Shown: in pieces, positions 3,484 through 35,040 of the stretch
Layout of the letters: every line of letters begins with the position of its first letter
How positions within the stretch are numbered: position 1 is the stretch's first letter
Virus record (IMG/VR): IMGVR_UViG_2534681759_000010
Coordinates: 1 to 36,000 of that record
Length of the DNA stretch: 36,000 nucleotides
Reading direction: 5' to 3' (one strand)
Source of the DNA: a virus
Lineage: Duplodnaviria; Heunggongvirae; Uroviricota; Caudoviricetes
Notes under the pieces: generated by a model
Seen by the model: only the letters and a program-made list of their open reading frames with translations
Database searches by the model: none
What the model was told of the DNA's origin: nothing
Made by a program: the position numbers and the translations under genes

Positions 3484-3904
3484 CTCGAATCCTCCTACAA
3501 TGTGGATTAATGATTTCTTAAAAAAGAGCGTTAACCGCTCACTATTATTTATATGGGGATTGTATTTTATTTTTCAACCCCTCACATTTATCTCTTATAT
3601 ATGTATTTACAACAGAGATATGTTAAAATGTTATTCAGATGTTATCAGACGTGTTAAATGTGTTAAACCACAGCACGAATTGCTAAAGCGAAGAACACGA
3701 TTTAACCAAATTGATGTATATTCAATCAATTTAGAAAAAGGCATAGCACTTTTTGCTAAAGCGGTGAGCATTAATTGAGCTATGAATTGTAAAGATTTGT
3801 TACAAGATTTTCTCTCAGATCCAAATCTTCACAGGCATATAACAATTTAACACGGTGATAACAAACGGAAGGAAAATCGGTAAATTTTCACTTTCAATAC
3901 AAAT

Positions 3905-3933
3905 ATTATACCACATTTTTCTCCAATTGTCAA
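3905..3933 (-). promoter_or_regulatory. Leftward sigma70 promoter: TTGACA, 17-nt spacer, TATAAT on the minus strand
   Basis: + strand ATTATA near 3905-3910 and TTGTCAA near 3927-3933 are the reverse complements of TATAAT and TTGACAA with a 17-nt spacer. Confidence 0.45.
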
Positions 3934-4000
3934 GTGTAGCACCGATCCTACACAGTGTCAACAAAGGATTTTCAAACCTACACTAGCCCTACACTATGAA

Positions 4001-4195
4001 AATTGCCCCTGAATTTTTGCCCCTGAACCAAAATCCCCTAGATTCCACATCCAATTTTTGCCCCTGAAACCCACTATTTTTGCCCCTGAAATTCTGGGAA
4101 ACAGTGATTTTGCCCCTCATTTTTGCCCCTGAAATGCCAATAATTGCCCCTGAAAATCTAATTTTTGCCCCTGAAATTTGCCCCCCCGAAAAGGA
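4001..4195. repeat. Array of about 8-9 direct copies of (T)TTTGCCCCTGAA(A) with irregular spacing
   Basis: Copies read at approximately 4001, 4013, 4054, 4076, 4107 (degenerate), 4121, 4142, 4160 and 4176 (degenerate). The same core forms the palindromic stem of the terminator at about 6494-6522. Confidence 0.65.
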
Positions 4196-4352
4196 TTGGT
4201 GAGAAAAACTCTTTATAAAACATTAACTTAGTGAGGGGCAAAAGCGGGGGATCGGGCGTGCATAGATATTATATAACACATTCGCTACGCTCATGTGTAA
4301 AACCAAAAACAACAAATAACCAAAAAGATATTAGGAGGGCGTAGCCCGACTG

Positions 4353-4650
4353 CGCGAAGCGCCAACCAATTACTTCTAGTAACAACTAATTTAAACTAGA
4401 TGATCTTAGAAGGAATTAACTAGTTTGCTCGCTCGCTTCGCTCACTCCCAAACGTCTGCGACGCCACTGCGTGGCATCGAGAATCACTTTTGAAAGGATT
4501 TTCTTAGAAAGGGATTTAATACCAGATGATAACTGATTCTAGTAAACGAACGAAGTGAGTAACAATCACTTTCTAGAAAGGTATTGGTTATCCCTTCGGG
4601 ATTGCAACCTTCGGTTGCCAAATTGCTTCCTGATTATTATTATTTCTCCA
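4353..4650 (+). ncRNA. Candidate structured non-coding RNA or leader: two tandem UUCG-tetraloop hairpins, then a U-rich tract
   Basis: No ORF; repeated CTAGAAAGG-ATT motifs; ATCCC-TTCG-GGGAT and GCAAC-CTTCG-GTTGC hairpins near 4590-4620 followed by a T-rich run; bracketed by an 18/20 direct repeat. Strand and ends uncertain. Confidence 0.25.
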
Positions 4651-4824
4651 AAAGAAAGATTCTTATATTCTAAAGATACTTCTTCGTTTTGATGATGGTT
4701 TAATCAAATTATGAAGGAGGGCTTTGCCCGACTGAATACAATCACCTTTCATAATAACAAGAATTTTCTCTTTATAAATAATAGTGAACTTACTTGATTC
4801 ACTTTCTTTTAGAGGATTTCCACT

Positions 4825-5292
4825 ATGAACCATAAACTGACTACCACTACTCCTTTTATCCTTCTGGGTCTGGATGCAGATAGCTTTCACAATGACAAGT
4901 TAATGAAGATGTTCCGTGAACGTGGTTATAACATCCTTTACAATACCGATGAATCCCATTTCTCTAGTGCATGGTATGTTTTCGGAAGAAATAAACGTCC
5001 TACCATCGTTGTTAACTGCTTCACCGATGAAGACCGCCTGAAATACCAGAACATTCCAGCAATCATTGTTCGTGATGACCTGCCTTTCGAAGTCCGTGAT
5101 TATGACATTGATTTAGGTAGCTTCGTTACTGTCTATGAACTGGATGAAGCCATGTTTAACTACGGCAAAGAAACCGCTCAGGAAGCCCCAGAACACGATG
5201 AACAAGACGAAGATGACGACGACTACACACCAATCTGTTTCTCTTCTCACGGTGGCTTCTACGGTTACGATGAAGGCTTAGATATGCTGTAA
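4825..5292 (+). CDS. Hypothetical acidic protein, 155 aa (C-terminal DEQDEDDDDY)
   Basis: GAGGA RBS about 8 nt upstream; first rightward gene after the non-coding block. Confidence 0.55.
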   Translation: MNHKLTTTTPFILLGLDADSFHNDKLMKMFRERGYNILYNTDESHFSSAWYVFGRNKRPTIVVNCFTDEDRLKYQNIPAIIVRDDLPFEVRDYDIDLGSFVTVYELDEAMFNYGKETAQEAPEHDEQDEDDDDYTPICFSSHGGFYGYDEGLDML

Positions 5293-5314
5293 TTTAGGTC
5301 AACCCTTTGGCGTC

Positions 5315-5356
5315 TTGTCAAGGGGTATTGACAAAAATTTCTGACTTTTTTATGAT
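5315..5356 (+). promoter_or_regulatory. Rightward sigma70 promoter (TTGACA, 17-nt spacer, TATGAT) overlapped by a perfect palindrome TTGTCAA-ggggta-TTGACAA
   Basis: Read directly from sequence; a second TTGACA follows about 35 bp downstream. Confidence 0.5.
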
Positions 5357-5414
5357 TATCGCACTTGACAACTTTGAACCTATTTGACCTAGATTTGTAA
5401 AGAGGATGTTAATT

Positions 5415-5561
5415 ATGAACACTACTAAGAAAATTGATGGACGTAAAAACCCGAACCGCAAACCGTGGACCCCAAACCTGAATTTCTCAATGGTTGACTT
5501 CCATGAACGCCAGCGTCGCATTCAAGAAGAAATTGATCGCGCGATTGCTGAATCTAAATGA
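5415..5561 (+). CDS. Small basic protein, 48 aa (MNTTKKIDGRKNPNRKPWTPNLNFSMVDFHERQRRIQEEIDRAIAESK)
   Basis: Below the ORF-track size cut-off; GAGG RBS upstream; immediately downstream of the promoter. Confidence 0.35.
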   Translation: MNTTKKIDGRKNPNRKPWTPNLNFSMVDFHERQRRIQEEIDRAIAESK

Positions 5562-5662
5562 GATAAAAACTTCTTATAAATAAAATTGTTCCGCGCGCCG
5601 TTGGCGTGTGGACAGTTAAAACAGGAGAATCAATCACTAAACCGTTTAAGGGGAATTTAATT

Positions 5663-6487
5663 ATGAATACTGTTACTGCTATGAATACTGCTAAAACTGC
5701 TTCCGTGTCTCTGGTTGTTGATAACACCAAACCGCTGACCATGTCTTCTCGTCAGATCGCTGAATTTACCGATAAGAAGCACAGCAATGTAATGCGCGAT
5801 ATTCGCGAAATGTACGAATCTTTAGGTATTATCGATCAGCTCAAAACTGAATTTGTCGAGAGAATCAATAACTTAGGATATGCTGTTAAAGAACCAGTAT
5901 ATCACTTAGACGAAGAAATGACGCTGACTCTTGTCACTGGTTACGATGTTAAGCGTCGAATGGTTGTTATTCAGGAATGGAAGCGACTGAAAGAAGAAAA
6001 TGAAAAACTGCGTCAGGAACGTTTAGCTGCTAACCCGTATGCAGACTTTGAAGAAACAGACTGGATCGAACTGGCATTAAAGAAAACTCGCGAAAATAAA
6101 AAGCTGATTGAACTTCATGTTCGCAAATCCGTAGATAGCCATTCAATGACCCGTCTGTTAGGCGCTAAAAAGGGCGCTACGAAGGTTAAAGAAGCACTGA
6201 CGGCCTTGCGTACTGCTGGCTACATTGAGCGCGTCTACGATGAAAATAACAAGCCGTGTGGGTATGTTGCTAATGACTCTTCTCTGTCTTTCTGCCGCAT
6301 GAATGCTCACTACCAACTTGAGTTTACTGTTGATGTTCTTCCGGTGCTGGTTGAATTGGGCGTTTTGGAAGAAGAACAGAAAGCAACTCTTAAACTACCG
6401 CAGCCAAATAACACTATTCTGATTCAAAACAAAGCGGCTGAACGTCTCCGCCAGAATGTTGGATCACTGGAACACTTCGGACTGTAA
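5663..6487 (+). CDS. Rha-family phage regulatory protein
   Basis: N-terminal LTMSSRQIAEFTDKKHSNVMRDIREM fits the Rha signature; start taken at the internal ATG with an AGGGG RBS (track start 5606 + 57). Confidence 0.65.
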   Translation: MNTVTAMNTAKTASVSLVVDNTKPLTMSSRQIAEFTDKKHSNVMRDIREMYESLGIIDQLKTEFVERINNLGYAVKEPVYHLDEEMTLTLVTGYDVKRRMVVIQEWKRLKEENEKLRQERLAANPYADFEETDWIELALKKTRENKKLIELHVRKSVDSHSMTRLLGAKKGATKVKEALTALRTAGYIERVYDENNKPCGYVANDSSLSFCRMNAHYQLEFTVDVLPVLVELGVLEEEQKATLKLPQPNNTILIQNKAAERLRQNVGSLEHFGL

Positions 6488-6493
6488 TAATTT

Positions 6494-6522
6494 TTGCCCC
6501 TGAAATTCAGGGGCTTTTTTTG
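6494..6522 (+). terminator. Strong rho-independent terminator
   Basis: GCCCCTGA-AAT-TCAGGGGC hairpin followed by TTTTTTT. Confidence 0.7.
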
Positions 6523-15383: not shown

Positions 15384-18300
15384 ATGCAATCAATCCAATT
15401 TAAGCGAACTAATGTAGCTGGCAAAAAGCCAACGCCGGAACAATTACAGGTCGGTGAGGTAGCAATCAACCTTAAAGACCATGTTATTTTTACCAAAGAC
15501 CGAGATCATGAAGTAGTTCAAATCTCTGTTTCTCCTGAAACTCACGCGGCACTAGAATCTAAAGTTGATGCTAACAAACAAGAACTGGATAGTACAATTG
15601 CAGTAAATGACCGCAATATTCACGCTAAAGTAGATGAAATTAAACAAACTACTGATGCAACCATCGCAGCAAATCACGCAGAAATTAACAATAAAGTTGA
15701 TGTAATTAAACGCGAAACCGACGCGACAATCGAGGCCAATAAAAATAAAGCTGCTTCCGATCTTGCTGGTGTTAAAGCTGAATTGTCGGATACCATCAAC
15801 GCTAATAAAAATGCGGCTGCTGTAGCAACTCAGGAACTGGACACCCGCATCAATAAAAAAGTTGATGATATTAAATCCCGTACCGATGCAACCATCGCAA
15901 GCAATTACAAAGCAATCAATGACAAAGTTGATTTGATTAAGGCAGAAACTGACCGCACTATCGCAGCAAATCACGCCTATGCGGAAAATCAGTTAACTGA
16001 CACCTACAATAACCTTACTGGTGTGATTGCGGCTAATAAGCAAGAGGCAGCGGATAACGTCGCAGCATTAACCCGTGATGTTGAAGCCAAAAATTCAGCA
16101 ATTCATAGCAAAGTTGACAATAACAAGTCTTACACTGATTCTGAACTGGCACGCTTAGAAAGCCGTATTGATGCAGCCGACGGATCGAGTGATGGCAAGT
16201 ACATCAAAAAACACGTAAACACTTATACTGATGGTTATTTGTTGTCTAAGACCGCAAACTATTTTGATGATCCGACCGCACGAAATCTTGATTATTTTGG
16301 TGCATTCCGCATGAATGACCTGGCGGGTCATATTGCAATGATCTTGCATGTTCCGCATCCATCTGGTGTTAATCATGCTCGTGGCTTTGAGTTCACTTAT
16401 GGGTCTAATCCGGTTCATACGGTAAGAACATACGGCTACGATGAATTGGGTAACTTGTCATATTCTCACCGCATGTATCATGAAGGCGATAAACCTACTC
16501 CGGCTGAAATTGGCGCATATTCGAAAGCAGAAATTGACCGACTGTTCCAGAAGACGCTTAATTTTGGGATCGAGGGTGGTTGGTTTAAACTAGGCACTTT
16601 GACAATGCCACAGCAACACGGTCGTAGTGCTAAGATCCGCTTAGTTGGTGGTAACGGTTATAACGTCGGGATGAATGGACAAGCCAATATTATCGAATTG
16701 GTGATTCGATGCGGCAACAATAGCCCGAAAGGTGTTGTATTCAATGCGTATTATACTATTTGGCATTATGAACAACATTTTTGCGCTATTCCAACCGATG
16801 GCGACAATTACGATCTTTACGCTTACTACGGTGCACATACAGGATTTGTTTTAGCAGAATATCAAGTTTCTTCCGGTGGTGTTTCTTTAAACCTGTTGGA
16901 TACTCCTGAATATCTGGGTGGTGAAAAACCTGTTGCAGATGAAATTTTTGATGCTCTTAACATTTCATCGTTCAATAACTTTAGCAACCGTGGAACGTTA
17001 AATTTTGCTGGAAACCATCAAGGCCAATACGACATTGAGCATATGAACGAACAACCGACAAATGCTAAAAAGATGTTGCGTCGCTTCCGTAGTTCTGCTC
17101 CTGCCACTATCTGGCACGAAAGTGTTGATGACCAAAATTATCGTCTTGCTACTGGATATACCGATGTAACCCAACAATTATTGCTTTCGGCTGTAACCGG
17201 TTTGCATATTCGTAGATTGACCATCGATGGTGGCTTGGGTTCCGGTTCTAATGCTGGTATTGATATTCGTCGAGGACCAAACGAAGCAAGCCATTTTAAT
17301 TTTATGGATTATCGCACTGGTCAAGATGTTCGTAATGGCTGGTTTGGTTTTGGTGATTTGACGACCAAAGATTTTATTTGGTGGAACGATAACGGTCAAA
17401 ACTCAATAAACTTGATCGAAAACGGTGAATTGCATATTACTGGCGGTAAAGGCCAGAAAATTGTAATGAATAGCGAAGTTGCATTATCTGAAAATGCTCG
17501 TTTGGCTGTCAGAGGCGGTAACTATGGTTTGATATTACGCAATGATGGTTCTAACTTCCATATTCTTACTACCGATTTAAAAGATTCTTTTGGTAATTGG
17601 AATAATCGCAGACCATTCAGCTATAATTTTGAGGACGGTGGACTATATTTAGGTGGCACTGAAACTGCTCGTTGTTTGCATCTGGGAATTGATGGTAGCA
17701 CTCGTCTCGAAGACAACCTTTTCTTTAAATCTGGTTCTCGTCAATCTATGGACTATATGGAACTCGTCCATTGGGGGGCAAGCAATACAGGTCGAAATAA
17801 CGTTTTAAGTCTTCGTGACTCAAAAGGATTTTTAGCCGAATTTGAACGCGTGGGGGGGACTAACGGCGTTAAAACCAGATTCTTTGGTGAAACCTTCACT
17901 GACGGTACATTATACCTAAATCAGATGAATAATAGCTCTGAACGATTCTCTATCAACAATTGGGGAAATTCAGAAGTTGGTCGCGCGGCAGTAATGGAAA
18001 TCGGCGATTCAAAAGGTTATCACTTCTATACTGAACGTAGGACAGATAACAGTTTGATGTTTGATGTTGCTGGCGCTTTTACTGTGCATGGATCTAGCGG
18101 GATCACTATCAAAAACTCTGATGGTGCTCGTCACATCTGGTTTAGAGATAACAGCGAATCGGAAAAGGCTGTTATTTGGGCGACCGATGAAGGTATTTTA
18201 CATATTCGCAATAACCACGGTGGACCATTTAGTCATCACTTTAAGGGTGCAATGATTCAACTGGAAGGGCGTGTTCCTTATGCCGCAGATCAAGGACTTA

Positions 18301-18914
18301 TCCGTGGTGAAGTTGATGGTGGTGCATATGTTGCATGGAGAGACCGCCCTGCTGGTTTGTTGGTTGACTGCCAGAAAAGTGTTGACAGTGCTCATGCTGT
18401 TTGGAAAGCGGTTGATTGGGGGCGTCAATATATCGCTGCTATGGACGTTCACTGTCCGGGTGATGGTAATAATACCGCAGCCGCTGTTCTTCATGTTCAG
18501 GCTGCCGATTATCAATTCCATGCAAGCGGAGAATTTCATGCCACTGGCAACGGAAACTTTAACGATGTGTATATTCGTTCTGACCGTCGCCTTAAAGACA
18601 ATATAGAAGATTATACCGGAAATGCGTTAAGTTTGATTGGTAAGCTGAAAGTGAAAACTTACGATAAAGTTAAATCTCTTAAGGACCGTGAAATTATAGG
18701 CCATGAGATTGGCATTATCGCACAGGATTTACAAGAAATATTACCAGAAGCTGTGAAATCTTCAAAAGTTGGCAATCTTGATAATCCAGACGATGTTCTG
18801 ACAATTTCTAACTCGGCAGTGAACGCGCTGTTAATTAAAGCGATTCAAGAAATGAGCGAAGAAAATAAAATCCTTCGTGAACGTCTTGCTGCAATTGAGG
18901 CTAAATTAGGGTAA
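15384..18914 (+). CDS. Tail fibre with N-terminal repeat region and C-terminal S74-type intramolecular chaperone domain
   Basis: About 19-aa repeats (KVDxIKxxTDATIAAN) in the first 250 residues; C-terminal NDVYIRSDRRLKDNIE...IIAQDLQEILPEAV resembles the self-cleaving chaperone domains of T5 pb1 and K1F endosialidase. Confidence 0.8.
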   Translation: MQSIQFKRTNVAGKKPTPEQLQVGEVAINLKDHVIFTKDRDHEVVQISVSPETHAALESKVDANKQELDSTIAVNDRNIHAKVDEIKQTTDATIAANHAEINNKVDVIKRETDATIEANKNKAASDLAGVKAELSDTINANKNAAAVATQELDTRINKKVDDIKSRTDATIASNYKAINDKVDLIKAETDRTIAANHAYAENQLTDTYNNLTGVIAANKQEAADNVAALTRDVEAKNSAIHSKVDNNKSYTDSELARLESRIDAADGSSDGKYIKKHVNTYTDGYLLSKTANYFDDPTARNLDYFGAFRMNDLAGHIAMILHVPHPSGVNHARGFEFTYGSNPVHTVRTYGYDELGNLSYSHRMYHEGDKPTPAEIGAYSKAEIDRLFQKTLNFGIEGGWFKLGTLTMPQQHGRSAKIRLVGGNGYNVGMNGQANIIELVIRCGNNSPKGVVFNAYYTIWHYEQHFCAIPTDGDNYDLYAYYGAHTGFVLAEYQVSSGGVSLNLLDTPEYLGGEKPVADEIFDALNISSFNNFSNRGTLNFAGNHQGQYDIEHMNEQPTNAKKMLRRFRSSAPATIWHESVDDQNYRLATGYTDVTQQLLLSAVTGLHIRRLTIDGGLGSGSNAGIDIRRGPNEASHFNFMDYRTGQDVRNGWFGFGDLTTKDFIWWNDNGQNSINLIENGELHITGGKGQKIVMNSEVALSENARLAVRGGNYGLILRNDGSNFHILTTDLKDSFGNWNNRRPFSYNFEDGGLYLGGTETARCLHLGIDGSTRLEDNLFFKSGSRQSMDYMELVHWGASNTGRNNVLSLRDSKGFLAEFERVGGTNGVKTRFFGETFTDGTLYLNQMNNSSERFSINNWGNSEVGRAAVMEIGDSKGYHFYTERRTDNSLMFDVAGAFTVHGSSGITIKNSDGARHIWFRDNSESEKAVIWATDEGILHIRNNHGGPFSHHFKGAMIQLEGRVPYAADQGLIRGEVDGGAYVAWRDRPAGLLVDCQKSVDSAHAVWKAVDWGRQYIAAMDVHCPGDGNNTAAAVLHVQAADYQFHASGEFHATGNGNFNDVYIRSDRRLKDNIEDYTGNALSLIGKLKVKTYDKVKSLKDREIIGHEIGIIAQDLQEILPEAVKSSKVGNLDNPDDVLTISNSAVNALLIKAIQEMSEENKILRERLAAIEAKLG

Positions 18915-20392: not shown

Positions 20393-20419
20393 AGCCATCC
20401 TTCGGGGTGGCTTTTTTGT
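20393..20419 (+). terminator. Rho-independent terminator after the tail tube gene
   Basis: AGCCATCC-TTCG-GGGTGGCT hairpin followed by TTTTTTG. Confidence 0.65.
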
Positions 20420-20466
20420 TTCCAATTCTAAATAAACATATCTAATTAACTTAAGAGGAAACAAGA

Positions 20467-31712: not shown

Positions 31713-31752
31713 AAAAAACCTCACTTAATTTATCTTATAGGCATTACCTTTA

Positions 31753-32205
31753 ATGTTGATGATCGAGTTCGTAGAAACCGAATTAACTAAACTGGCTTCC
31801 GAAATGGAAGAAGAAACTCCGGCAGAAGGAACCAGTATTAACGATCTTATTCTGGCAGCAGATACCGCAGATGATAAAGTAGTATTCGACGAAGTTGATC
31901 CGTCTCTGGTTGAAGCAATGAAAGAACCTGAGATCGTCATTGAAGAAACAAAAGAAGAATCTCCAGCAGTTGAACCAGTGGTCGAAGAAGTTAAGTCAGA
32001 TGTTGAAGAAGCACCGGAAGTTAAAGTGAAATCTCCGGTAGCAAACATTTTCTCTGACGAAGCAGAACATCGTTCCCCAGCACATGACACTGATTCATTT
32101 TGCGATCTTACTGGCTTCCGTCCGACCATTTGCTTGATCGGTGGCGGTCGTGGTTACTACTCCTGCCCGTGGTCTTCAACCATTACAACAAATTTTTCTC
32201 AATAA
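31753..32205 (+). CDS. Highly acidic protein, 150 aa (E/D/V/P-rich, VEE repeats); DNA-mimic or anti-restriction candidate
   Basis: Frame uses codons I recall as preferred in enterobacteria (GAA, CCG, CTG, GCA); the overlapping minus-strand ORF 31725..32129 is a Ser/Thr-rich antisense shadow. Confidence 0.5.
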   Translation: MLMIEFVETELTKLASEMEEETPAEGTSINDLILAADTADDKVVFDEVDPSLVEAMKEPEIVIEETKEESPAVEPVVEEVKSDVEEAPEVKVKSPVANIFSDEAEHRSPAHDTDSFCDLTGFRPTICLIGGGRGYYSCPWSSTITTNFSQ

Positions 32206-33310: not shown

Positions 33311-34990
33311 TTAAATTCCAAATTCCTGTAATGGACCTGGTATTTCCTCTTCTGGTTTCCAGTTCTTATCTGTCAGCATGTCTAAACATGGATGCAAAAC
33401 AAGCCCGTTACTTTCCAGAATCTGTCTATCATTGATAGTTTTCAAATCAACGAAGATCCGGCCTTTCCTCGGTCCTCTTGAATTTTCTATTACAACTCTC
33501 TGGGTCTTGCCATCGATGTATTCCAGTACAAACAAGTTTTTGTACTTGTCAATCCTGCTACACCCGATCCGTTTTAGAGCTTGCTTAATCTTAAACCGGA
33601 CCTTAATGCGATCCTCGTTGTAAACATCTTCTATATCAAATTCTGCGAGCTTCTCCCAGCCTTGAGAGTCAACAGAATACATTTCCTCTTCTGCCATCTT
33701 AATTTGATTGTAGAGTGTTTCACGCTCGCTATTGAGGGTAGTAATCTGATCGGCTAGCTCCTTCGTTGCTCCTGTCATAGCAGAAAGGGTAATCAGGTTA
33801 TCAATCTTGCGTGATATTTCATCAATCTGTACTTTCAAAGCCGGAACCGGATTAGCCTTATCCTCAGCAATCCAGATTTTATCAGCCAGCAATTGCAATA
33901 CAGCTTTCTCTAATTGATCACCTCGAAAACTCCAGTTTGTATGCACACATGCAATACGACTAGAGCGCATTGCATCGCATGAATAACGATATTGGTTAGG
34001 ACGTTTGTTAGTTCCTTTCACCTTAACCATAGCGGAACCGCAATGTTCACATTTCAATAGACCAACACCACTAAGCAAGGGAATAGGTTTAACTTCTTCC
34101 TTGTCTCCATAGTTACATGCTCTAACACCAATGCTTTTCTTAAGGTGATAAAACTCAGCGTCATCTAGCACACGAGGATAATAATCCTTTAACTCATACT
34201 TAACGCCATCTACAGAGATTTCCTTGATACCAATCAAAGCGCGGGTATGGAACAACCTTTCAATCATTGCCCGTGACCAGTTTGAATGCCTCTTGTGACT
34301 TGCGGCTGGTGGTGGTGTGTATGTCGCGTTAAGGTGATCCAGTATCTCGGCGGTTGACCGTCCATTCCTGCGTAATTCCACAACTTCCTGAACAATAGGG
34401 AAGAAGACCGGATGAGGAAGCACATAACCAGATGTGGTATCAGTCCACCACATATTCTTTCCAATTTCCTCGATTGCAACAGCCGGATTTTGTGGATTTT
34501 CTTGATGAGCTTTAATCTTAATCAATGCGCTTGAGTTAGTACGATTGCGCTTAGTCTGACTTTCCTCGTTAGCTCTCGCAAACAACATGACACTCAACAG
34601 CAAATCAATAGGATTGGCATTAACCGATTCCTTGCTATAGACCTTACCATCCATGCCAGTTACGATAGTTATTCCCCTACGGATAATCGAGAGAAATAGC
34701 TCTTGTGCTTCAATGATGGATTGGCGAGAGATACGGTCTAAGTTTTCCACAACCAGCCAGCTACCAACCGGAACGGATCGACCAATCTCATCCAGAAAGC
34801 GAGATAGTGCACCTGTTCTACTGTTAGCCCCTTTGAATGCAGATACACCAAAATCCTGATAGGAAGTAACCAGTTCAAGGTCATATTTTGCGGCTATCTC
34901 TGCGGCTGTTCTCTTTTGGCGTTCATAAGAACTACCATCTGCTTGCTTCATGGAAGAGAAGCGAATATACGAATACAGTTTAGTTTTCAT
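33311..34990 (-). CDS. Large serine recombinase (serine integrase or invertase-like)
   Basis: N-terminal resolvase catalytic domain (MKTKLYSYIRFSSMKQADGSSYERQ); long C-terminal extension with Cys cluster (CEHCGS...C...C) and coiled coil, typical of large serine recombinases. Start at the internal ATG (track start is a TTG). Confidence 0.8.
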   Translation of the reverse strand: MKTKLYSYIRFSSMKQADGSSYERQKRTAAEIAAKYDLELVTSYQDFGVSAFKGANSRTGALSRFLDEIGRSVPVGSWLVVENLDRISRQSIIEAQELFLSIIRRGITIVTGMDGKVYSKESVNANPIDLLLSVMLFARANEESQTKRNRTNSSALIKIKAHQENPQNPAVAIEEIGKNMWWTDTTSGYVLPHPVFFPIVQEVVELRRNGRSTAEILDHLNATYTPPPAASHKRHSNWSRAMIERLFHTRALIGIKEISVDGVKYELKDYYPRVLDDAEFYHLKKSIGVRACNYGDKEEVKPIPLLSGVGLLKCEHCGSAMVKVKGTNKRPNQYRYSCDAMRSSRIACVHTNWSFRGDQLEKAVLQLLADKIWIAEDKANPVPALKVQIDEISRKIDNLITLSAMTGATKELADQITTLNSERETLYNQIKMAEEEMYSVDSQGWEKLAEFDIEDVYNEDRIKVRFKIKQALKRIGCSRIDKYKNLFVLEYIDGKTQRVVIENSRGPRKGRIFVDLKTINDRQILESNGLVLHPCLDMLTDKNWKPEEEIPGPLQEFGI

Positions 34991-34999
34991 ACCATTTCC

Positions 35000-35040
35000 A
35001 AACAAAAACGCCCCTACCGCGTATTATAACGATAGGGGCA
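35000..35040 (-). terminator. Hairpin terminator immediately upstream of the recombinase start
   Basis: GCCCCTA...TAGGGGC stem with a 16-nt loop containing TATTATAAC, followed on the minus strand by GTTTTTGTTT. Confidence 0.4.

Follow-up and report, generated by a model that had tools for sequence, protein, structure and literature searches.

A conserved array of small hairpins between the divergent operons of an Escherichia coli prophage, partly shared with RB49-type phages, as a candidate origin or early-control region

What is the role of a segment of about 400 bp that lacks genes but is filled with small hairpins, lies between two divergent operons of an Escherichia coli prophage and is bracketed by a direct repeat? 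The segment, positions 4333-4734, belongs to a stretch of 36,000 nucleotides from IMG/VR record IMGVR_UViG_2534681759_000010, which was analysed over its whole length and is hereafter called the window. Judged by its sequence, it is a real, conserved and structured non-coding element of a family that is absent from Rfam and is common to a temperate prophage family and to T4-like phages. The reading that is preferred here, though tentatively and at less than even confidence, regards it as the cis-acting, non-coding initiation zone of an iteron-type origin or as an early-control region, while its sequence does not support a gene, an insertion or a leader of the adjacent open reading frame (ORF) ORF155. 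The evidence consists of the hairpins and their local enrichment, their conservation, the linkage of neighbouring iterons to a protein gene, and the sharing of one part of the segment with phage RB49.

The hairpin array and its conservation

Perfect triloop hairpins with a C-G closing pair and a GNA/TNC loop are rare in the window and strongly clustered: six of the eight fall in 4300-4740 (441 bp), which corresponds to a density of 13.6 per kb as compared to 0.056 per kb elsewhere and thus to a roughly 240-fold enrichment. In 2000 dinucleotide shuffles the mean number of such hairpins was 0.04, and none of the shuffles (0/2000) reached six. The six mini-hairpins are arranged in three tandem pairs (Table 1), two of them presenting the GNA loop on the plus strand and four on the minus strand, and each combines the C-G closing pair with the G-N-A triloop of the d(C-GNA-G) motif. 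DNA mini-hairpins of the GCGNAGC type are unusually stable and poorly bound by single-stranded DNA-binding protein (SSB), and GNA mini-hairpins are documented at the primase sites of phages G4, St-1 and alpha3, at ssiA of RSF1010 and at the hairpin promoters of phage N4 (PMC13037366).

The preliminary description of this DNA had spoken of tandem hairpins with UUCG tetraloops that are followed by a U-rich run. Two adjacent hairpins do exist at this place, the rightmost tandem pair of the array, but they are not cUUCGg tetraloops: the G of UUCG pairs with the preceding C, which yields stems of 5 bp and 6 bp with UUC triloops. Likewise, the U-rich run is present but begins only ~17 nt past the second stem, and a scan for intrinsic terminators calls none in 4333-4734 on either strand. 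Folding of the 441 nt gives z-scores against dinucleotide shuffles of -4.0 for the plus strand and -3.4 for the minus strand. The fold of the minus strand is the better defined one, with RNA and DNA parameters alike; the RNA z-scores are -2.2 and -2.9 on this strand, where the minimum free energy structure equals the centroid, versus -1.8 and -1.6 on the plus strand. Within the middle tandem pair, the second stem (H4) extends to 9 bp on the minus strand including one G.U pair. The rightmost pair constitutes, together with an AT-rich core of 75 nt and a terminal AU hairpin, a composite module at 4590-4708. A long-range helix between 4354-4361 and 4434-4441 was considered and is disfavoured, as a GAA to GTA change in relatives breaks this helix and leaves the local hairpin intact. 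Rfam 15 yields no match in the whole window at the gathering threshold, C4 antisense RNA included, and at E <= 10 only four chance-level snoRNA or sRNA matches (E >= 1.1) were obtained over 3700-4900.

Table 1. Positions of the iterons, hairpins, repeats and promoter-like sites in the window
Feature	Position	Strand	Remarks
g313, orphan of 313 aa	2245-3186	-	beta-rich N-domain, coiled coil, acidic tail
Nine direct iterons TTTTGCCCCTGAA and one inverted copy	3997-4243		phasing of 21-22 bp; inverted copy at 4232-4243
Direct repeat copy 1, AGGAGGGCGTAGCCCGACTG	4333-4352	+	AGGAG-hairpin-GACTG; includes GGGC[GTA]GCCC, 4337-4347
Mini-hairpin H1, GGGC[GTA]GCCC	4337-4347	GNA on +	from the scan for perfect triloops
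Mini-hairpin H2, GCGC[GAA]GCGC	4352-4362	GNA on +	tandem partner of 4337-4347
AT-rich palindrome AAACTAG...CTAGTTT	4393-4426		between the plus- and minus-strand hairpin pairs
GCTTCGC, i.e. mini-hairpin heptamer GCGAAGC on the minus strand	4435-4441	-	invariant in types A and B
Tandem pair CGTC[TGC]GACG (4453-4463) and GCCAC[TGC]GTGGC (4463-4475)	4453-4475	-	GCA loops
AT-rich spacer with class-II repeats ATCACTTT..GAAAGGnATT	4482-4585		includes quasi-palindrome 4562-4585
Tandem pair ATCCC[TTC]GGGAT (4590-4602) and GCAACC[TTC]GGTTGC (4604-4618)	4590-4618	-	GAA loops; first part of the composite module
AT-rich core of the composite module	4636-4708		ends in AU hairpin TTTGAT (4688-4693)/ATCAAA (4703-4708)
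Sigma-70-like site TCATCA-17-TAGAAT, 8/12 matches	4667-4695	-	position shared by the window and RB49 copies A, B and D
Direct repeat copy 2, AGGAGGGCTTTGCCCGACTG	4715-4734	+	includes GGGC[TTT]GCCC, 4719-4729
ORF155 promoter-like site ATAACA-17-AATAAT	4754-4782	+	includes invariant TATAAATA at 4773-4780

An alignment of ~33 distinct relatives of the prophage, denoted by locus handles where they have to be told apart and by the type of their iterons (see below), reveals how the array varies. In type B, the left part is strongly diverged and only the second repeat is present, yet the hairpin chain remains collinear, consisting of CGGC[GTA]GCCG, GCGC[GAA or GTA]GCGC, the invariant GCTTCGC and, at the position of 4453-4475, ACGCC[TAC]GGCGT, with a different central palindrome, CCTGCAAGCAGG, at the position of 4393-4426. 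In types C and D, a 6-bp GC hairpin takes the place of the chain. Loop swaps retain the G-N-A pattern, as seen in the exchange of GAA and GTA in type B, where the stem of 4352-4362 stays intact, and in the rightmost pair of L001/L002, where TTC is changed to TGC, which is GAA to GCA on the minus strand. In L006/L009, the stems of this pair are replaced altogether by TGC/GCA with GACGCTC/GAGCGTC. The paired regions, whose conservation in related sequences had been proposed as a check, are thus conserved through compensatory change or wholesale replacement of stems. Because stems change their sequence in relatives yet stay paired, the hairpins appear to be selected as structures. A breakpoint lies at ~4484, and the block to its left, H1-H4, is inherited together with the module of iterons and g313.

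The 18/20 direct repeat that brackets the segment is confirmed and is unique, with just two matches in 36 kb at <=3 mismatches against a shuffle expectation of 0.00, and no reverse-complement copy of the 20-mer is found in the window even with 3 mismatches. Both copies take the form of a small hairpin in conserved flanks, AGGAG...GACTG. Copy 1 is restricted to relatives of iteron type A, among which its loop is GTA, TTT or TTTA. The flanks of copy 2 are invariant in all relatives, and its hairpin occurs in the variants TTT, TTTA, TAT, CTAG, GGC[GAA]GCC and, in L017, TGGC[TTTA]GCCA, the last of which represents a compensated G-C to U-A change. That copy 1 sometimes bears the loop of copy 2 suggests conversion between the repeats. 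The repeated motif TAGAAAGGnATT of the preliminary description was also recovered, namely as TAGAAAGGGATT (4505-4516) and TAGAAAGGTATT (4574-4585), and turned out to be part of a wider local set of class-II repeats, ATCACTTT..GAAAGGnATT, at ~4482, 4564, 4740 and 4797, with no enrichment of ATCACTTT across the whole window. Relatives hold 3-5 copies of the class-II repeats, and mosaic and deletion breakpoints coincide with them. In L098, a perfect palindrome of 36 bp, GGATACCAATCACTTTCTAGAAAGTGATTGGTATCC, is present at -300 to -250 relative to ORF155, as compared to a quasi-palindrome of 76% in the window; such perfection would be typical of hairpin or template-switch dynamics at the DNA level.

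The absence of coding capacity from the segment holds as well. Its largest ORFs do not exceed 45 aa, and the small ORFs that might be considered (45 aa at 4484-4621 and at 4555-4692; 28 aa at 4711-4797) were rejected, as they are disrupted in relatives by indels or altered hairpin length, such as a 1-nt indel before the hairpins and a hairpin of the second repeat that is 9, 10, 11 or 12 nt long.

Iterons, the g313 gene and the surrounding prophage

To the left of the hairpin array, phased iterons (Table 1) are followed on their right by a short GC-rich block (4243-4260) and an A-rich stretch (4262-4332). The GC content is 30-38% with a strong A-skew at 4260-4349, and 22-27% at 4620-4709 and 4740-4829. 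At the same position, relatives carry four unrelated types of iterons, namely GCCCCTGAA; CCTACAC; CCCCGGTATTAG with ATGTACAAG; and CCCCG. The GCCCCTGAA type is present exactly where the g313 gene is present (29/29 loci in which this covariation was scored), whereas TerS, g60, ORF155 and g201 are common to all iteron types and track none of them. Where g313 is missing, distant relatives stand in its place, in which a beta-rich N-domain of variable sequence is joined to a coiled coil and an acidic tail. Every iteron type thus has its own allele of this orphan protein, of 313-371 aa (L005, L006 and L009 being examples), and beside some alleles a second protein is encoded whose end reads ...PTLR(L/I)VA. 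Because the type of iteron matches the presence or absence of g313, this protein is a putative iteron-binding protein, cognate to the adjacent repeats, and might serve as initiator. Hence, two features by which iteron origins are recognised are found here: phased direct repeats beside the gene of a putatively cognate protein and, adjoining the iterons, an AT-rich unwinding element. A reading of the iterons as cosB or another terminase site was rejected, since TerS does not co-vary with the iteron type.

Outside the array, the TTTTGCCCCTGAA motif occurs in the window only at 6490-6520, as the left arm of the terminator of the Rha gene, GCCCCTGAAATTCAGGGGC+TTTTTTT, and it recurs there also in relatives with other iteron types. 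The copy at 6494 was therefore rejected as a functional iteron, being merely one arm of this terminator.

The segment sits in a gap of 1.34 kb without genes (3484-4824) that separates a leftward operon, comprising g60 for a helix-turn-helix-like protein and g313, from a rightward operon with ORF155 (4825-5292), a small ORF and a Rha/Ant-like gene. A strong leftward promoter, 3933->3905 (-), matches sigma-70 perfectly (TTGACA-17-TATAAT with TG), and ~375 nt past it a strong terminator-like hairpin, 3540->3526 (-), GAGCGGTTAACGCTC+TTTTTT, lies just upstream of the ribosome-binding site of g60. The region 3520-3933 (-), which also contains a conserved hairpin, GGGGATTG...CAACCCC, at ~3555-3581, is a candidate for an abundant leader, an attenuator or a non-coding RNA. 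On the right, a strong promoter reads rightward at 5328-5356 (TTGACA-17-TATGAT). Inverted repeats of TTGTCAA/TTGACAA (3927-3961; 5315-5371) overlap the strong leftward promoter(s) and the rightward promoter at 5328-5356; these dyads are operator-like and might belong to a switch between lysis and lysogeny, and the heptamer is not enriched across the window.

The position of the segment between divergent operons with strong promoters raises the question of whether it merely binds proteins as duplex DNA. In this case, g60, Rha, g313 or another repressor that controls the divergent promoters would recognise as operators the palindromic and repeated sequences of the segment (ATCACTTT..GAAAGGnATT, AGGAG..GACTG and the palindromes rich in GC), and the hairpins would be a by-product of dyad symmetry. 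Several observations fit such operators: the promoter-like site of ORF155 has class-II repeats on either side, and the copy number of their arrays varies; L098 holds a perfect palindrome of operator type (22-36 bp), and the immunity-like polymorphism of the iteron/g313 module would suit a pair of repressor and operator. On the other hand, the GC stems change their sequence wholly and yet remain self-complementary, with loops of 3-4 nt and stems of 3-7 bp, of which dimer operators are intolerant; the bias towards GNA/TNC loops with C-G closure is a signature of single-strand folding, and RB49 lacks the candidate binding proteins of the prophage. An operator role is accordingly considered unlikely.

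The window represents an E. coli chromosomal prophage of ~35 kb, and ORF155 is matched verbatim in assembly GCA_000355255.2. The region is present in 58 of 5,426 complete E. coli genomes, chromosomal every time, with the segment at a median of one place per genome. Insertion sites of the prophage family are hicB (this window; O55:H7 strain DEC5A) and ycdX (strain ES2), and positions 1-351 of the window start within hicB, cut off by the prophage insertion. A serine recombinase of the large type is encoded at 33311-35005 (-), and further proteins of the prophage comprise a large terminase of the gpA type, a lambda-type portal and a TerS-like protein. Upstream of the gene for the latter, the GC-rich non-coding region 721-1004, which might hold cos, includes another C-G-closed mini-hairpin (882-894, GTCGC[TAC]GCGAC) with a stem identical to that of one composite hairpin of RB49. 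Close relatives were not found among deposited phages and plasmids, megablast of the region included, nor did a scan of GTDB representative genomes with ORF155 give a match, and the literature search on this prophage family returned nothing useful. Scanning for tRNA and tmRNA found nothing, and among the ORFs scanned in the window no replication genes or other origin candidates were recognised.

The module shared with RB49-type phages and the strand of transcription

The sequence 4636-4708 is 80% identical over 74 nt to RB49-type Krischviruses (E = 4e-7; 59 records). RB49 has four copies of the module, A-D, at ~62.8, 97.5, 97.7 and 150.0 kb, which form three loci and are always intergenic, next to gene 3, ORF164c (two copies) and gene 36. 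The full architecture of two adjacent GC hairpins, AT-rich core and AU hairpin is seen in three of the four copies, copy B having a single hairpin. The stems of the RB49 copies read GTCGC/GCGAC with GTGCC/GGCAC, TCGC/GCGA with CTCC/GGAG, and CCGC/GCGG, and every composite stem, in the RB49 copies as well as in L006/L009, is fully Watson-Crick despite the differences in sequence. The AU hairpin covaries from A-T via G.T to G-C, the G.T intermediate being a wobble pair on the plus strand only. In the part of the MAFFT alignment that is in register, 90% of cells pair, and sliding the partner lowers this share to 27-60%. Covariation scores 0.171 in register, a value that 2 of 500 shuffles attain, whereas the slid controls stay at <=0.093. 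Viral and metagenome scans for the core detected only the prophage and RB49-type lineages, and Rfam returned nothing relevant on the RB49 locus. Neither a candidate binding protein common to RB49 and the prophage nor a prophage homologue of RB49 ORF164c/165c was found.

Further traces of contact between the two lineages lie elsewhere in the window. At 31753-32205 (+), the nucleotide sequence is 89% identical over 421 bp to RB49 inh, the inhibitor of the prohead protease; the real gene is the plus-strand ORF (31759-32173), which overlaps an ORF on the minus strand (31725-32129), and the similarity indicates that DNA has recently passed between the prophage and a virulent T4-like phage. A protein of 1176 aa encoded at 15384-18914 (+) matches the distal long tail fibre of RB49, gp37, with 43% identity over 922 aa, and the prophage therefore carries a receptor-binding fibre of the T4 type. 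Moreover, a terminator hairpin of 29 nt at 20393-20421 (AGCCATCCTTCGGGGTGGCTTTTTT region) is identical to one in the intergenic region between ORF167c and hoc of RB49. To judge from these matches, prophage and RB49 have clearly exchanged DNA.

The weak TCATCA-17-TAGAAT site of the minus strand (Table 1) is the sole promoter-like site of the module that keeps its position, and its persistence is not independent of the overall conservation; no consensus sigma-70 site is common to the five module instances. Upstream of ORF155, the box TATAAATA is invariant in all relatives and identical to the T4 late-promoter consensus, and similar boxes also follow the RB49 module copies beside genes 3 and 36. 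In relatives, the terminator scan calls H1 of type B (-) and hairpin 2 of the L009 composite (+).

The preliminary description had proposed a structured small RNA, of which the structure stands, while a match in Rfam and a canonical pair of promoter and terminator are missing; if an RNA is made, the minus strand is the better supported one. One or more structured non-coding RNAs of ~75-420 nt might then run leftward through the tandem hairpins and end at H2/H1 with a U-rich tail near 4325, starting from TCATCA-17-TAGAAT (4695->4667), a TG-extended site (4778->4751) or TTGTTA-18-TAGAAT (4565->4536). They would act in trans, as each repeat reads GCCCUCCU, an anti-Shine-Dalgarno motif, on the minus strand, or regulate the divergent operons in cis; in RB49, the module copies would then represent paralogous genes for small RNAs. 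This explanation is rather improbable in itself, but only slightly less probable than the origin reading. It is in line with the better-defined minus-strand folds and their whole-segment z of -3.4, with the location of GNA on the minus strand in four of the six mini-hairpins and the 9-bp stem of H4 with its G.U pair on this strand, and with the position-keeping promoter-like site (8/12). Furthermore, all four module types have a plus-strand A-run 5' of the leftmost hairpin, equivalent to a U-rich tail on the minus strand, which in type B is called as a terminator (ACGGCTACGCCGT+ATTCTTTTTG), and the reverse orientations of all four RB49 copies are co-directional with local transcription, copies C and D ending in U-rich tails. 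Against these points, no promoter exceeds 9/12 and none is well conserved across relatives, the window itself yields no terminator call and the L009 composite hairpin scores as a terminator of the plus strand, where alone the G.T intermediate of the AU hairpin is a wobble pair. In addition, H1 and H2 present their GNA loops on the plus strand, Rfam has no match and the window no complementary target of the repeats.

Of lower probability is a role in transcription punctuation, in which the hairpin pairs would terminate transcription, be it in one or both directions, insulate, or stabilise mRNA ends, with promoters in the AT-rich spacers, the whole resembling the cassettes of promoter-early stem-loops (PeSLs) and offering patches of homology for module exchange. 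PeSLs in RB49 and phi1 are intergenic cassettes of promoter and stem-loop that terminate transcription and mediate modular shuffling (PMC2839356). The exchange between prophage and RB49 (the inh-like gene, the gp37-like fibre and the identical 29-nt terminator), the breakpoints of mosaics and deletions at local repeats in the prophage family and the terminator-like calls for single hairpins in relatives agree with such a role, as does the position of RB49 copies B, C and D between the end of the upstream gene and the promoter of the next one. By contrast, the gaps that hold the prophage segment and RB49 copy A separate divergent genes and call for no termination; the best conserved promoter-like site of the module reaches 8/12, whereas PeSL promoters agree with the consensus; none of the stems in the window directly adjoins a U-tract; conservation of the 75-nt core extends to its actual sequence, beyond mere AT-richness; and the prophage module is not adjacent to the exchanged genes.

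Least supported, and very unlikely, are the remaining proposals of the preliminary description, i.e. a plus-strand leader of the 4825-5292 gene (ORF155), a plus-strand small RNA ending at the hairpins or the U-rich run, and a small insertion with terminal direct repeats. Points in their favour are the plus-strand z of -4.0, the plus-strand G.T wobble of the AU hairpin, the terminator score of L009 hairpin 2 on this strand and a -10-like box that is retained upstream of the leftmost hairpin in all types. The downstream operon moreover has an Ant/Rha-type gene, and the c4-icd-ant and P4/N15 systems likewise pair such genes with an upstream RNA region. The long leader is nevertheless not supported, given that the ORF155 promoter-like site lies downstream of the segment, the minus strand folds better and, in three of the four RB49 copies, the module and its flanking genes point in opposite directions. 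For any plus-strand transcript, promoters upstream lack a -35 element, a terminator is missing from the window, c4 and the other Rfam families are unmatched at E <= 10 and no internal complement to the repeats exists. As regards an insertion, no empty site that retains a single repeat copy was seen among the ~33 relatives, terminal inverted repeats are absent, the segment is single-copy per genome, type B is collinear, and the sole deletion has other endpoints than the repeats.

A tentative origin model and its closest known systems

The origin reading is favoured because the segment combines structured hairpins with a lack of genes, a position between divergent operons and a polymorphic iteron/protein module, in a prophage with no other recognisable replication function. 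According to this model, the g313 protein would bind the phased iterons at 3997-4243, and the A-rich stretch 4262-4332 beside the hairpin zone would melt easily. Unwinding of this DNA, or its displacement by a short transcript that runs leftward, would expose single strands on which the tandem C(GNA)G mini-hairpins could fold, with the stable loops of one pair on the plus strand (4337-4362) and of two pairs on the minus strand (4453-4475 and 4590-4618). We infer that the hairpins act there as single-stranded DNA and that priming starts at them: they would stay free of SSB and mark sites of priming or strand initiation, outward in both directions, much as the ssi signals of RSF1010 or R1 and the origin of phage G4 are arranged. 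Both direct repeats have the form of a hairpin followed by GA and CTG, which was counted in favour of the origin reading, CTG being the start triplet of DnaG. In the composite at 4590-4708, tandem hairpins would be combined with an AT-rich unwinding element and a weak promoter into a portable version of this arrangement.

A wider form of this proposal, which we regard as doubtful, holds that the composite is a portable and so far undescribed priming or R-loop origin module, dependent on host factors and common to the E. coli prophage family and the Krischviruses (RB49, phi1 and JSE), so that the three RB49 loci would be the unmapped origins of RB49. The RB49 copies are situated among late genes, and two of their three loci coincide with a strand switch.

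Several findings weigh against an origin. No DnaA box TTATCCACA was detected in 3510-5715 with 1 mismatch allowed, and no IHF consensus in the gap. The g313 protein belongs to a tiny orphan family and resembles no known initiator: searches of Pfam, PHROG, NCBIfam and the PDB, with allelic variants and a four-sequence profile, gave coiled-coil noise only; tblastn against plasmids and phages found no homologue; exhaustive phmmer collected 11 proteins without informative domains; a search for homologues returned near-identical hypothetical proteins only; and a single-sequence AlphaFold2 model reached a pLDDT of 46 and was unusable. An assignment to a known Rep family by family, structure, plasmid or phage match is therefore not obtained, and an immunity repressor is an equally good reading of g313. 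Nor are GNA triloops specific to DNA, as the genuine RNA terminator at 2116-2145 of the same window also uses C[GAA]G. One apparently whole prophage, L003/L040, has lost 4572-4737 between CAATC microhomologies rather than between the direct repeats, and L124 misses part of the core. Finally, the RB49 copies lack adjacent iterons, and the reverse orientation of all four is co-directional with the next gene and places them just upstream of the promoter of that gene, which suits a role in transcription equally well.

If the origin reading is true, a prophage family found in ~1% of complete E. coli genomes gains an origin and an initiator, the unmapped origins of RB49-type phages gain concrete candidates, and GNA mini-hairpins, so far known from phages with single-stranded DNA, RSF1010 and N4, would prove to serve as a modular signal also for phages with double-stranded DNA and very different lifestyles. 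Should the RNA reading be true instead, a new family of structured phage RNAs that is absent from Rfam would emerge, with paralogous copies in a therapeutic phage genus. Under either reading, the module is a trace of DNA exchanged by temperate with virulent coliphages.

Among known systems, REP/BIME elements share with the segment the clustered, GC-rich intergenic palindromes with short linkers, and roles at both the DNA and the RNA level have been proposed for them; they differ in that the segment is single-copy per E. coli genome and phage-specific, with much shorter stems and no REP consensus. The antisense immunity RNAs c4 of P1/P7, CI of P4 and CA of N15 resemble it as structured non-coding regions with direct repeats upstream of an Ant/Rha-type operon, whereas the segment has no Rfam C4 match (E <= 10) and another hairpin architecture. 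An antisense logic of the c4/P4-CI type was rejected, as no segment of the window is complementary to the repeats, with 3 mismatches allowed.

The PeSLs of phi1 and RB49 (Arbiol et al. 2010, PMC2839356) are likewise intergenic, repeated and exchanged in a mosaic manner, and consist of an AT-rich tract with one or more GC stem-loops. They carry consensus sigma-70 promoters and stems of G-runs and C-runs and flank early ORFans in hyperplastic regions, and a GGGC...GCCC motif was noted at T4 deletion endpoints (PMC2839356). The module described here also has the repeated intergenic stem-loops and the AT-rich tract; in contrast to PeSLs, it contains no consensus sigma-70 early promoter within the unit, has tandem GNA mini-hairpins and a conserved core of 75 nt, and is located in late-gene regions of RB49.

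[quoted passage not shown] The R-loop origins oriF and oriG are comparable to the module in combining a promoter with a downstream AT-rich unwinding element and in their location in late regions or at strand switches; they differ from it in sequence, T4 origins have no motif in common among themselves and are not described to contain tandem hairpins, and the positional parallel in RB49 is approximate.

The origins that come closest to the preferred origin reading are oriV of RSF1010 with ssiA/ssiB, oriR of R1 with its G-site and the complementary-strand origin of G4. Differences consist in the lack of Rep similarity and DnaA boxes and in the integrating nature of the prophage, whose element is known from its sequence alone, and the hairpins here are tandem pairs of 4-6 bp instead of the 3-stem fold of G4 or the 40-nt ssiA. 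The likeness extends to phased iterons beside a co-varying protein gene, a GC-rich followed by an AT-rich block, stable C-G-closed GNA hairpins on opposite strands and a CTG after the hairpin in both repeats. In oriV of RSF1010, iterons, a GC-rich part, an AT-rich part and ssi hairpins on opposite strands follow one another, and it is this order that is paralleled by positions 3997-4476 of the window.

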